Shown here: in pieces, positions 24,521 through 28,151 of the stretch | How positions within the stretch are numbered: the stretch's first letter is position 1 | Layout: every line of letters begins with the position of its first letter | IMG/VR virus record: IMGVR_UViG_2909303794_000006 | DNA length: 46,314 nt | From: a virus | Taxonomy: Duplodnaviria; Heunggongvirae; Uroviricota; Caudoviricetes | Direction: 5' to 3' (one strand) | Position numbers and translations under genes: made by a program | The notes under the pieces: generated by a model | Seen by the model: only the letters and a program-made list of their open reading frames with translations | Database searches by the model: none | Told to the model about the DNA's origin: nothing

Positions 24521-24970
24521 TCATCGAAGGCATTGCGTCCTGATGTATTCCTGCAGGTAGTTAACCTGCGCGGTTATCCTGTCGATTCCACTTCGGAGAC
24601 GGTAATAATTGAGTTCAGCATCTGCTGTAAGTCCTGGGCTTTCTCCATCGCCCATGCCGCTGGCTCCGGTCGTTGACTTTGCACAGGTGGCGGCGACTTG
24701 CAGGCGCTTACGACCAGCAGAAACATCAGCACGGAGACTTTCGATAGTCGCGTTAGCATCAGCAAGCTCCTTTGTATATCTGGCGTCGAGTTCTGCTACA
24801 TCACGTTGACGCTTCTGCATATCAGCGATGATGGATGTGGCTTTATCGCGCTGTTCTTTGTAAGCGATGGCGTTATCACGGTAATGATTAACAGCCCATG
24901 ACAGACAGACGATGATGCAGATAACCAGAGCGGAGATGATTGCGGTTACCCTGCTCATTGCTGCCCCCAC
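24521..24970 (-). CDS. Rz: i-spanin Rz
   Basis: N-terminal TM helix plus coiled coil, lambda/P21 Rz-like. Confidence 0.85.
24574..24765 (-). CDS. Rz1: o-spanin Rz1 lipoprotein embedded in Rz in another frame
   Basis: lipobox VSAC followed by Pro-rich segment; fully inside Rz. Confidence 0.7.
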
Positions 24971-25452
24971 AAACAGACTTCACGCTCAATCTCACGACGA
25001 GTCATCAGGCCTTTCCATTGCTTACCGCCAGCGTATGTCCAGCGCCGTAACTGATCACATGCACCTTTAATATCGCCCTGGTTTATTTTGCGAAGAAGCG
25101 TCGATGTTCTGAAATTACCAGCGCCCACGTTGTAAACGAACGAGTAAAGAGCGCCGCGCGTTGTTTCCGGTATATCGACTTTGATGTACGGGTTAATTTG
25201 TCTGGCGACCATGGCAAGGTCTTTATTCAGGAGGGCTTTGCATTCTGCTTCGGTATACGTTTTACCGGGAATGATGTCTTTTCCGGTGTGTCCGTGACAT
25301 ACAGTCCATACGCCAACGATATCTTCGTATGGTATGTAGCTGACACCTTCCAGGCCATCGTCACCACTCGGACCAGTGATGAGCACAGACGCTATGGCAA
25401 CAGCCCCACCACCAATAGCAGCAGCAACAGCCTTGCGTAATGATGGCGACAT
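24955..25452 (-). CDS. R: SAR endolysin (phage lysozyme, P21 R-like)
   Basis: N-terminal Gly/Ala-rich signal-anchor-release helix; close to P21 R. Confidence 0.9.
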
Positions 25453-25667
25453 TATTCACCTCTCGCAGCCTTACGCTTATCTTCTTTAATCTTGAAATAA
25501 AGGTTTGTCAGATACGTCAGCAAGCCAAACACCAGGCTACCCAATACGCCTATTGCCACCCACTGGGATGGGGAGACTTTGTCCAGCAACTGCAGTAGCC
25601 AGTATCCCGTCCCCACCGCTGACGTGGTGTATGACACACCTGTTGTGATTTTTTCCATCTGGTACAT
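25452..25667 (-). CDS. S: pinholin (P21 S-like), probable dual start (MYQMEK)
   Basis: two TM segments and C-terminal [13 protein letters not shown] as in S21; start/stop overlap with R. Confidence 0.85.
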
Positions 25668-25700
25668 ACCCCGTCTCCCGTTATCCGGAAGCTGACAACA

Positions 25701-25730
25701 ATAAAAAGCCACCAGTTAATTCCTGATGGC
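25701..25730 (-). terminator. tR-prime-like terminator just upstream of the lysis cassette
   Basis: minus-strand hairpin GCCAUCAG-GAAUUAA-CUGGUGGC followed by UUUUUAU. Confidence 0.5.
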
Positions 25731-26532
25731 CCTGATGCATAAACGTCATAATACCTGACTGTTATGATTGACAATAATGATAATGTTTATATAGAAAGGT
25801 TCCCGATGTGTGTTACATATCATTTCTCCACGGGGAATATCCCCACGCCAGCGCAGACTCTTTTACCCGTTCTCTTCTGCGCTGGCTCTTTTTTATTATG
25901 CTGCTGCATTTACCTCTGGCACCAGGCTTTCTATCTCAACACAATACGTGGTACTTCTTGTAACCAATATCATAACGATTAATCGACATAGAATTTCTCC
26001 CGTGTACAGGAACAGAGTTAAAAAGCCGGAACCGGAATCAAATCACAGGATGACCATCTGCCAGTGGCAGGTCATAAAAAAAAGGCCGCGCCATGCGCAG
26101 CCAGAACTCACAAGGAAAATGATAGAAGGAAATAACATTAGTGATGTACGCATGGCGCCTCCCGCTAAGTTCTGCAATGATCAAACAGAACTCGCTACGT
26201 GCCCTTAAAACTCGATCATTTAGCCCCTCCAAGGAGGATTCACCATGCGGTTGATTTTTTAATAAACAGTAAACAAAAAAGTCAAGAATTATTCATTCTG
26301 TTCTTTCATCATCGGCCACAGCAATACCACAATGCCGCAGACCAGAGCGCCATCAGTCAGTACCAACATTATCCTGCTGGTGAAATCCATCATCACCATC
26401 ACTAAAAGCAGGATCACAACAGCAAGCAGACACAGTTTATAAAACAATGTTCAGAAAACGCATTCAGCATGCCTAAGGTTCTATTCCTACGAATAGCCAA
26501 CTTGCAACTTAAAATATTATTTATGCAGCCAA

Positions 26533-27291
26533 TTAAATTCTGGTCCTTACAATATCAACCTGAAGATTCTTATCTTGTGCTGATTGATAAATGACAAACC
26601 TTTTACTACCTGCATTGAAAGAAGTAGACAAAACCAGACAATTATCATAACGAGCAAGAACATAATACCAACCATCATTATAATTAATCATTTCATATTC
26701 TTTCTTAAACTGCGGTTTGTAATATCCTGTCAGAAATGAAAAAAGCCAGAAATATGCCACAAAAGCAATCATCACAATCTCAAAAAAATGTTTTTTTATA
26801 AATGGCTTATCATAGAAGCATGATACCGATAAAAATCGCCCATAAGATCTTATCGAAATTGTAACCGCCAGCGCAATCGCTGCTGACAGTAGCAAAAGAG
26901 GTACCTGAATCTTCTGTCTCAATATAGAAAACTCAATAATTGCCGGCACAAACAATAATTCCACAGCAAAATAAAGGCGAAATACATTTAGCTCTTGCAT
27001 AGAATGTTTTCTTTTCACTGCGAAAAAGAATACAACACCAATACCCCAACCGATAAGAAATATAGCAATGACGATAACTGCAAAAAATAAACTTCTGGCA
27101 ACATCATCAACACCTGCACCTACAATCCACCATGGGAAGCCGTAGTAAAAAGAAGTACCCCATCCATAGAAATAAGCACTCCCCCATCCAAGGCATCCCA
27201 TGTAGGCAATAAAAAGTGAAGAACTCCTGAGCAGCGCACCATCCTTCATAACCACCCCAATACAAGATGATAACATTGGCTTACAACTCAT
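26533..27291 (-). CDS. AT-rich polytopic membrane protein of unknown function (late-operon moron); start may be internal Met15 at 27249
   Basis: 252-aa ORF, several hydrophobic segments rich in W/Y/F/G plus C-terminal soluble tail; GC visibly lower than flanking phage genes. Confidence 0.65.
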   Translation of the reverse strand: MSCKPMLSSCIGVVMKDGALLRSSSLFIAYMGCLGWGSAYFYGWGTSFYYGFPWWIVGAGVDDVARSLFFAVIVIAIFLIGWGIGVVFFFAVKRKHSMQELNVFRLYFAVELLFVPAIIEFSILRQKIQVPLLLLSAAIALAVTISIRSYGRFLSVSCFYDKPFIKKHFFEIVMIAFVAYFWLFSFLTGYYKPQFKKEYEMINYNDGWYYVLARYDNCLVLSTSFNAGSKRFVIYQSAQDKNLQVDIVRTRI

Positions 27292-27449
27292 AACAAAAGC
27301 AATTCAATGCCGTCAAGAGGTTACAGGCTAAAAAACTCTATTACATTGCAGTCAGCATGTTTACTACACAAATACAATTCAGAGCATAAAAACTACTCGG
27401 CGGCAGGTTATTGAGACTCATCAATGACATGTAAAAAACGCCCATTATT

Positions 27450-27485
27450 GGTGTCAAGTTTCCCCAAAGTTATTCAAAAAGTCAA
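27450..27485 (-). promoter_or_regulatory. late promoter pR-prime / qut region downstream of Q
   Basis: TTGACT -35 and spacer resemble lambda pR-prime as I recall it; -10 reads GAAACT rather than TAAATT. Confidence 0.5.
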
Positions 27486-27527
27486 TATTATGCCGTTAAT
27501 ATGTTGCCATCCGTGGCAATCATGGCG

Positions 27528-28151
27528 CTAACGTGTGATCGCATTCAAAATGTTGTCTGCGATTGACTCTTCCTTGTGGCATTGCACAACCAGAGCGTCA
27601 TACAGCGGCTTAACAGTGCGTGACCAGGTGGGTTGGGTAAGGTTTGGGATTAGCATCGTCACAGCGCGATATGCGGCGCTTGCTGGCATTCTTGAATAAC
27701 CGACGCCTTTACATCTTCCGCACTCTTTCTCAGCAACTCTCCCCCACAGCTCTGTTTTGGCTATATCAACCGCACGGCCTGTACCGTGGCAATCTCTGCA
27801 TCTTGCGCCCGGCGTAGCGGCACTACGGCAATAATCCGCATAAGCGAATGTTGCGAGCACTTGCAGTACCTTTGCCTTAGTATTTCCTTCAAGCTTTGCC
27901 ACGCCACGGTATTTCCCCGATACCTTGTGTGCAAATTGCATCAGATAGTTGATAGCCTTTTGTTTGTCGTTCTGGCTGAGTTCGTGCTTACCACAGAATA
28001 CAGCCATTCCGAATCCGGCTTGTGATTGCGCCATCCCCATAGCAGCCATCACATCAGTACCGGAAAGAGAGTCAGAAGCCGTGGCCCGTGGTGAGTCGCT
28101 CATCATCGGGCTTTTTGGCGAATGAAATTTAGCTATGCTTTCGAGTCTCAT
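27528..28151 (-). CDS. Q: late antiterminator Q (lambda type)
   Basis: 207 aa, near-identical to lambda Q. Confidence 0.95.

Follow-up and report, generated by a model that had tools for sequence, protein, structure and literature searches.

The tract at positions 25701-26532 of IMG/VR record IMGVR_UViG_2909303794_000006 (46,314 nucleotides (nt), here called the window) lies between a membrane-protein gene and the holin gene S in a nearly complete lambdoid prophage of Escherichia coli, whose late operon runs on the minus strand. The late strand of the tract carries a small membrane-protein gene of the DUF3927 family and the gene of the small RNA (sRNA) PasD1, also known as EcOnc13; the plus strand carries the gene of a second sRNA, EcOnc32, which is convergent with PasD1, and the remnant of an esterase gene lies between the two. 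A preliminary description made from the sequence alone had called the tract AT-rich, which the base composition bears out (41.9% GC in 25701-26532 vs. 50.9% in the whole window), and had suggested that it might encode small RNAs or small membrane peptides, or be a decayed remnant of earlier cargo; each of these is found there, as two sRNA genes identical in sequence to detected RNAs, one DUF3927-family gene recognized by Pfam and PHROG, and an internally deleted esterase gene. We are highly confident that the tract is a "moron slot" downstream of the antiterminator gene Q and the late promoter PR′, which holds a convergent pair of genes for Hfq-dependent, trans-acting sRNAs.

PasD1 on the Late Strand

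Minus-strand positions 26248 to 26076 are 100% identical over 173 nt to NC_011601.1 1060260-1060432 of enteropathogenic E. coli (EPEC) E2348/69, which Table S6 of Pearl Mizrahi et al. 2021 (PMC8550237) lists as PasD1 (plus strand, 173 nt) together with a northern probe; this probe, CATGCGCAGCCAGAACTCACAAGG, is found on the plus strand of the window. Within the gene, positions 26142 to 26092 are identical to the Hfq-crosslinking peak EcOnc13 of enterohemorrhagic E. coli (EHEC), reported at Sakai 901332-901382 with a northern signal of ~187 nt (Tree et al. 2014, PMC4104026). An Hfq-associated RNA of ~170-190 nt is therefore on record for identical sequences in both EPEC and EHEC. PasD1, PasD2, and EcOnc13 have the same seed, terminator, and neighbors (Q, DUF3927, holin) as the window copy, which is 97% identical to PasD2 and shows no sequence difference from PasD1. 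Zhu, Shabalina & Storz 2026 (bioRxiv 10.64898/2026.05.13.724894) place PasD1 directly beside the holin/lysozyme genes, with Q and LpxR as conserved neighbors; in the window, Q lies upstream of PasD1 and holin/lysozyme directly downstream.

The predicted fold of PasD1 comprises a long-range closing helix (26248-26241 paired with 26157-26150, GCAUGGUG/CGCCAUGC), a 5′ hairpin (26238-26225), an internal domain, a single-stranded stretch that contains the published seed UGUGAG (26112-26107), and a terminator. The terminator stem (26102-26084) and the U8 that follows it (T8 in the DNA) form the strongest terminator in the tract, one that the preliminary description had not listed. At its gathering thresholds Rfam gives no match in the tract; an E-value scan below the gathering scores is the source of two leads, STnc100 on this strand and Esr41 on the other, so that the covariance-model search suggested earlier does return full-length sRNA family matches, although both stay below the gathering scores. 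STnc100 (RF02076) matches at 26278-26073 (minus strand) over model positions 1-206 of 206, with 37.7 bits (E = 4.5e-6) against a gathering score of 47. Other weak Rfam matches (asX2, SorX, GcvB, suhB, and others) all fall on the PasD1 terminator and were rejected as terminator look-alikes.

A relationship of PasD to STnc100 is also reported by Zhu et al. 2026 (bioRxiv 10.64898/2026.05.13.724894), who in addition note Esr41-type cmscan matches near PasD. PasD1 and STnc100 have in common the closing helix, a C-rich 5′ hairpin, an inner hairpin, and the terminator, but the central domain is shorter by ~35 nt in PasD1 and the seed regions of the two differ. All four elements are kept in the consensus fold of six PasD/STnc100-type alleles (drawn from phage 434, phage Evi, E2348/69, and IMG/VR contigs), with a compensatory G-C to A-U double change in the closing helix of one allele (L018) and one compensatory pair in the inner hairpin.

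From the holin, across EcOnc32 and up to the PasD terminator, phage Evi (3001-3800, compared with window 25600-26420) is near-identical to the window. Across ~26104-26230, however, the PasD slot of Evi holds a body typical of the STnc100 type, rich in indels, between near-identical flanks. The sharpness of the alignment boundaries near 26104 and 26230 suggests cassette exchange by recombination, and the PasD locus behaves as an exchangeable cassette because the flanks are near-identical but the body differs. In E2348/69 prophage PP5 (L007 33-119, 385-720), the PasD slot of PP2 and PP4 is occupied by a truncated 28-aa DUF3927 gene and the iraM (anti-adaptor) gene, an arrangement that is a further case of variable cargo at the PasD position.

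The DUF3927 Gene and the Origin of the PasD1 Transcript

The gene upstream of PasD1 (26289-26447, minus strand) encodes a 52-aa DUF3927, or "TciB-like," small membrane protein from a TTG start. Its residues 7-50 match Pfam PF13064 (DUF3927) with 53 bits against a cutoff of 25 (E = 3.4e-14), and it also matches phrog_1470, "TciB-like" (E = 2.5e-17). A 36-codon hydrophobic open reading frame (ORF) noticed earlier on the minus strand does exist but is a truncated reading, being the C-terminal part of this 52-codon gene. Homologues number 74 in E. coli and Escherichia albertii, with lengths of 50-70 aa and identities down to ~46%, and the Evi copy has 73% protein identity. PGAP annotates the gene as DUF3927, the phage 434 record as TciB; the latter name was taken over from the annotation of phage P1.

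The start of PasD1 lies only 41 nt past the DUF3927 stop codon, and PasD1 could on that ground be the processed 3′ untranslated region (UTR) of a membrane-protein/DUF3927 moron mRNA, within a single late-strand transcription unit. In the same direction point Table S6 (PMC8550237), where PasD2 is bracketed with its upstream gene in the notation for UTR-derived sRNAs and so flagged as possibly 3′-UTR-derived, and the weakness of both −10 candidates that we read from the sequence, TATTAA (26264-26259) and TTAAAA (26262-26257). These AT-rich candidates nevertheless lie at the right distance from a good −35, TTGACT (26285-26280), and the whole promoter-like stretch (26257-26285, minus strand), which begins 4 nt past the DUF3927 stop codon, is conserved in Evi amid diverging flanks and although the RNA body downstream diverges. 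In EPEC, moreover, PasD1 exceeds its upstream gene ~60-fold (baseMean 8652 vs. 147 for E2348C_1012), a ratio that RNA stability could also explain. We consider a 3′-UTR origin unlikely, though a serious contender, and favor transcription of PasD1 from a promoter of its own.

EcOnc32 on the Plus Strand and Its Kinship with Esr41

Plus-strand positions 25812-25900 are identical to EcOnc32, an Hfq-CRAC (crosslinking and analysis of cDNA) cluster at Sakai 901574-901662 (minus strand) in prophage Sp3, which Table S2 of Tree et al. 2014 (PMC4104026) records in five of five Hfq-CRAC datasets with a northern signal of ~112 nt; according to the same study, seven Sakai prophages, Sp3 among them, carry convergent pairs of sRNAs at their moron site, 3′ of PR′. 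A search for "EcOnc32" found no main-text mention in the literature searched; the RNA is listed only, neither named nor characterized. In the window, the Esr41-like sRNA gene spans 25805-25897 (plus strand), with a 5′ end that may reach ~15 nt further upstream. Its predicted fold (minimum free energy −35.1 kcal/mol, z = −9.05) comprises hairpin 1 (25805-25821), the single-stranded seed AUUUCUCCAC (25822-25831), hairpin 2 (25832-25844), a terminator stem (25847-25886), and a U-tract (25889-25894; T6 in the DNA). The perfect 10-bp inverted repeat with a T-run that the preliminary description had found on this strand (arms 25848-25857 and 25876-25885, T6 25889-25894) is accurate and is the EcOnc32 terminator. 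Two candidate promoters precede the gene. One combines TTGACA (25768-25773) and TATAGA (25790-25795) and lines up with the promoter of Esr41; the other combines CTGACT (25755-25760) and GATAAT (25779-25784) and lines up with the −35 of PasA/PasC.

Esr41 (RF02676) matches at 25807-25896 (plus strand) over model positions 1-74 of 74, with 32.3 bits (E = 0.0012) against a gathering score of 102. Esr41/EcOnc14 and EcOnc32 are colinear in their −35 TTGACA, 5′ hairpin, single-stranded UUUCUCCA seed, and GGGG..CCCC hairpin, and their terminators are alike (GCCRGC..GCUGGC plus U-tract). The two RNAs are ~53% identical and differ in the terminator loop, which at 25 nt in EcOnc32 is 18 nt longer than the 7-nt loop of Esr41, and in location, EcOnc32 lying beside the holin of a lambdoid prophage and Esr41 in the SpLE1/OI-43 island. 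When the authentic Esr41 locus was aligned with five prophage sequence types obtained by an IUPAC-pattern scan of IMG/VR, the five EcOnc32/Esr41 types were found to share an invariant −35 TTGACA, the 5′ hairpin, the UUCUCCA seed, hairpin 2, and the terminator, with compensatory changes in hairpin 2 (GGGG/CCCC to GAGG/CCUC) and, in one type, in the terminator (C-G to U-A). A phage database search for the EcOnc32 module returned only phage Evi, at 98.8% identity, hence without covariation. Because the −35, hairpins, seed, and terminator are shared with compensatory changes, EcOnc32 is, as judged from these alignments, genuinely though distantly related to Esr41. The preliminary description had proposed to check whether related prophages conserve the hairpins of the tract; they do, compensatory changes included.

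EcOnc32 shares its slot and orientation with the "anti-sRNA" group of PasA/PasC and AgvB/AsxR, which lie antisense to the late operon between moron/esterase and holin; in E2348/69, PasA and PasC lie a short way past the stop codon of the esterase gene, to which they are convergent. Their upstream region aligns with the window, where the PasA/PasC −35 falls on 25755-25760. As an identity for the plus-strand RNA itself, PasA/PasC was rejected: blastn-short gave terminator-level similarity only, a forced alignment reached 43-48%, and the seed is different. The Rfam AgvB and AsxR models have no match in the window. The Q-to-S moron slot works as an exchangeable cassette site, where recombination with sharp boundaries exchanges PasD1 with STnc100-type alleles and, likewise, EcOnc32 with PasA/PasC.

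EPEC Signals for EcOnc32 Filed Under a Protein Name

In EPEC, the RNA filed as "E2348C_1013" corresponds to fragment 1060613-1060672 (minus strand), equivalent to window 25836-25895 (plus strand). Its baseMean of 2064, between neighbors at 147 and 5, drops 7.5-fold in a Δhfq strain (adjusted P = 1e-23). In EPEC RIL-seq (RNA interaction by ligation and sequencing), ~808,000 single fragments map there, and in chimeras the RNA is always RNA2. Its partners are the nlpD/rpoS leader (537 chimeras, P = 4.3e-78), the entC 5′ UTR (263 chimeras, P = 4e-165), the IE2 intergenic region (72 chimeras, P = 1.3e-22), and the dnaK 5′ UTR (28 chimeras, P = 0.004). Such a pattern is characteristic of an Hfq-dependent sRNA rather than an mRNA.

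The entC leader is the best-supported partner of EcOnc32 in EPEC. RNAduplex predicts that the EcOnc32 seed can form a duplex of −18 kcal/mol with GUGGAGGAUGAU, a segment covering both the Shine-Dalgarno sequence and the start codon of entC; when compared with shuffled targets, this duplex does not reach significance (fraction 0.17). Full-length RNAduplex runs of EcOnc32 and Esr41 against the entC and rpoS leaders were uninformative. Repression of entC by EcOnc32 is thus a lead that has support, not an established result. Esr41 represses cirA, chuA, and bfr (Sudo 2014, 2018; Waters et al. 2017, PMC5286369), which makes an iron-related role for EcOnc32 plausible, and a link to iron-acquisition mRNAs is common to Esr41 (cirA, chuA, bfr) and the EPEC homologue of EcOnc32 (entC chimeras). 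On balance, we lean toward the view that EcOnc32 is a functional, prophage-borne paralogue of Esr41 that uses the same anti-Shine-Dalgarno seed to repress mRNAs for iron acquisition, entC for example and perhaps also cirA, chuA, and bfr. On this view it is one of the most abundant Hfq ligands of both EPEC and EHEC, present in about one in ten E. coli genomes, and was left unnamed because its reads are filed under a spurious coding sequence (CDS; ECs_0817 in EHEC Sakai, E2348C_1013 in EPEC). If this is true, EcOnc32 could mask esr41-deletion phenotypes in EHEC.

An Internally Deleted Esterase Gene Between the sRNAs

From 26650 down to exactly 25965, the window is 98% identical to phage 434 and E2348/69 PP2, and 25965 is the position 25 nt into the 1851-nt SASA-family esterase CDS of 434/PP2. 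The 5′ stump of this SASA/NanS-p-type gene (25965-25989, minus strand) thus comprises the ATG (25989-25987) within the first 25 nt, and its translation begins MSINRYDI... vs. MSIKHYDV... in the esterase. Positions 25964-25880 are 82-83% identical to the last ~70 nt of the PP2, 434, and PP5 esterase genes plus 15 nt beyond. The 3′ stump (25896-25964, minus strand) holds approximately the last 20 codons (~70 nt), ends in a TAA at 25898-25896, and translates as ..YCVEIESLVPEVNAAA vs. ..YGVEIESLMLEINAPAA in the esterase; many genomes match it under "SASA family carbohydrate esterase." There is no intact ~615-aa SASA-domain ORF, the two stumps being joined at 25964/25965.

Compared with the NanS-p/SASA 9-O-acetyl-sialic-acid esterase genes of Stx and 434-type phages, the flanks, the start codon, and the C-terminal ~20 codons remain recognizable in the window, whereas the stumps keep no reading frame. 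As read from this junction, the esterase gene, which ordinarily occupies the space between the two sRNA genes, is internally deleted, with ~1.75 kb of its 1851 nt lost, and the tract holds the deletion remnant. The esterase stop codon lies just beyond the EcOnc32 U-tract, in the 3′ flank of EcOnc32, as expected of convergent genes, and the other EcOnc32 variants immediately follow the stop codon of an esterase gene that is intact. A second minus-strand stem-loop, AUGACCUGCCACUGGCAGAUGGUCAU (~26041-26067), immediately follows the U-tract of PasD1 on the 3′ side, where the former esterase gene had its leader; Evi has a partly altered version of this stem-loop.

Open Reading Frames Across the sRNA Genes

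The tract was earlier said to hold no late-strand ORF above about 60 codons, which is not the case: a 64-codon ORF with a TTG start occupies 26038-26232 (minus strand), and its 62-64-aa product is annotated as a "putative membrane protein" in phage 434. On the plus strand, a 132-codon GTG ORF (25810-26208; also at L005 1801-2199 and L010 16267-16665) is the RefSeq "hypothetical protein" WP_012578864.1, ECs_0817, or E2348C_1013. Both ORFs are thus annotated in public records, and the EPEC transcript and RIL-seq counts are filed under E2348C_1013, so that the tract might be taken as protein-coding, with the RNA signals arising from the mRNAs of these ORFs. Against this, searches of Pfam and PHROG gave no family match for the 132-aa, 64-aa, 72-aa, or MRLIF ORFs; Evi indels of 6, 1, 12, 8, 13, and 3 nt break both the 132-aa and the 64-aa frames while the RNA helices are kept; and the homologue of the 132-aa ORF in E2348/69 PP2 is a frameshifted pseudogene. 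The 132-aa ORF furthermore crosses EcOnc32 including its terminator, the esterase stumps, and antisense PasD1, and the RIL-seq reads cover only the terminator-proximal 60 nt (1060613-1060672), always as RNA2, which is the signature of an sRNA. A protein-coding origin of the signals is accordingly very improbable; the 132-aa plus-strand CDS is probably spurious, and the 64-codon and 132-codon ORFs look noncoding. Protein readings of all four ORFs were rejected, given the lack of family matches and frames that are broken, or a peptide that is unconserved, in Evi.

The smallest of the proposed coding features, a plus-strand mini-ORF MRLIF with a perfect Shine-Dalgarno sequence (26231-26262; AAGGAGGA at 26231-26238, ATG..TAA at 26245-26262), is present in the sequence but is not a gene. 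It is instead the antisense image of the 5′ end and promoter of PasD1: the Shine-Dalgarno sequence complements the 5′-hairpin arm UCCUCCUU of PasD1, the ATG complements GCAUGG of the closing helix, and the TAA lies within the AT-rich −10 region of the candidate promoter. Evi has at this site a five-codon ORF that encodes an unrelated peptide, MQKCF*; because the peptide is unconserved there, MRLIF is explained by RNA and promoter constraint and not by coding.

The RefSeq label "hypothetical protein," present in hundreds of E. coli genomes, should thus read two sRNA genes plus a pseudogene stump; with the label as it is, interactome data for a highly abundant Hfq-bound RNA are hidden under a CDS name. 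Much of the content of the tract is already known, PasD1/EcOnc13 having been named and validated, EcOnc32 detected and listed, and DUF3927 annotated. The present analysis makes modest additions, namely the assignment of every hairpin and mini-ORF to its owner, the junction of the esterase deletion, the kinship of EcOnc32 with Esr41, and the EPEC interactome data under a probably spurious CDS. Current understanding is left unchanged, with one lead in the redundancy of Esr41 and EcOnc32 in iron and colicin physiology.

Strength of the sRNA Assignment

Several observations weigh against a convergent pair of active sRNA genes. The PasD1 fold is only modestly better than shuffles (z = −2.07), and both Rfam matches score too low for membership of their families. 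The promoters of PasD1 and EcOnc32 are candidates read from the sequence, and to this must be added the weak −10 elements of PasD1, the bracketing of PasD2 in Table S6, and the entC duplex, which does not stand out from shuffled targets. Expression is known from the identical EPEC and EHEC sequences and is extrapolated from them to the strain of the window. By motif count, finally, the tract has three terminator-like sites vs. 2.2 expected from shuffles, which is chance level; the terminators rise above chance because of exact identity to experimentally mapped RNAs and not by their number.

It is highly improbable that the tract is mere inert debris, AT-rich DNA left behind when a cargo gene was deleted, with hairpins and mini-ORFs as chance features or fossils. 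In favor of debris, the esterase is truly reduced to 25 + ~70 nt, terminator-like motifs are no commoner than in shuffles, and the MRLIF and 64-aa ORFs have no family matches. Against it, ~270 of the ~830 bp exactly match RNAs that northern blots, Hfq-CRAC, and RIL-seq have detected in two pathotypes, compensatory changes preserve the hairpins among divergent alleles, and DUF3927 is a conserved family.

Late-Strand Terminators and a Proposed Mode of Expression

A second late-strand terminator (25696-25733, minus strand) stands immediately before S, 29-66 nt upstream of the holin start (ATG 25667), and consists of an 11-pair stem (25733-25705) followed by TTATTGTTGT. Phage 434 has a different sequence before S, yet a terminator is annotated there too. 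In lambda, tR′ is the first terminator shortly downstream of PR′, directly after Q, and ends the short PR′ transcript. The preliminary description was right that a terminator precedes S, but its comparison with tR′ fails on position, since the hairpin lies ~1.8 kb downstream of Q, past two genes and another terminator. A simple terminator scan of the interval directly after Q (27292-27527) found none. It is established lambda biology that Q-modified RNA polymerase reads through terminators, and by this analogy the hairpin before S may be a Q-overridden terminator.

We propose that, in the lysogen, PasD1 and EcOnc32 would be transcribed convergently from their own promoters and would act in trans with Hfq. 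The UGUGAG seed of PasD1 would pair with CUCACA motifs in target mRNAs, while EcOnc32 (~90-110 nt), in which two short hairpins flank the anti-Shine-Dalgarno seed, would most likely act as a translational repressor that pairs over ribosome-binding sites. Transcription of the sRNAs and the moron would be kept from entering the lysis genes by the late-strand terminators at 26102-26076 and 25733-25696, both of which Q-modified polymerase coming from PR′ would pass once the prophage is induced.

Genomic Setting and Prevalence

The late operon runs in the order Q (27528-28151), membrane protein, tract, holin, lysozyme (24955-25452), and Rz. The upstream boundary of the tract is the membrane-protein moron (26533-27291, minus strand; 252 aa, "STM1630 family," phrog_1521), and the downstream boundary is holin S of the class II, phage 21 type (25452-25667, minus strand; Pfam PF04971, E = 2e-32, and PGAP). 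A tRNA scan found no tRNA. The 951 bp around the tract occur with at least 99% identity in several hundred complete E. coli genomes, and at least 80% of 25650-26600 is held by 562 of 5426 complete E. coli genomes (~10%). The order Q, membrane protein, DUF3927, PasD1, and holin is also found in EPEC E2348/69 PP4 and EHEC Sakai Sp3; the Q allele of the window (624 nt) is that of E2348/69 PP4, unlike the Q of Sakai Sp3.

In E. coli 2022H047, where the tract is matched at 100%, NleG-family and EspJ type III effector genes follow the holin (stretch L003, 58-2518) in place of lysozyme/Rz, and because they occupy that position, this prophage copy is probably lysis-defective. Elsewhere in the window, the Rfam lambda cIII thermoregulator element (37905-37963, plus strand; 88.5 bits) marks the cIII start region, and only ~400 bp downstream of it is an insertion sequence (IS): an ALIL pseudoknot match (Rfam, 120 bits) at 38354-38470 (plus strand), with an ORF at 38399-39286 (plus strand), is the programmed-frameshift element of an IS3-family IS in the early region of the prophage. 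Two plus-strand ORFs at 30042-31064 (340 aa) and 31061-31843 (260 aa) oppose the direction of the neighboring nin-region genes and may be another moron.

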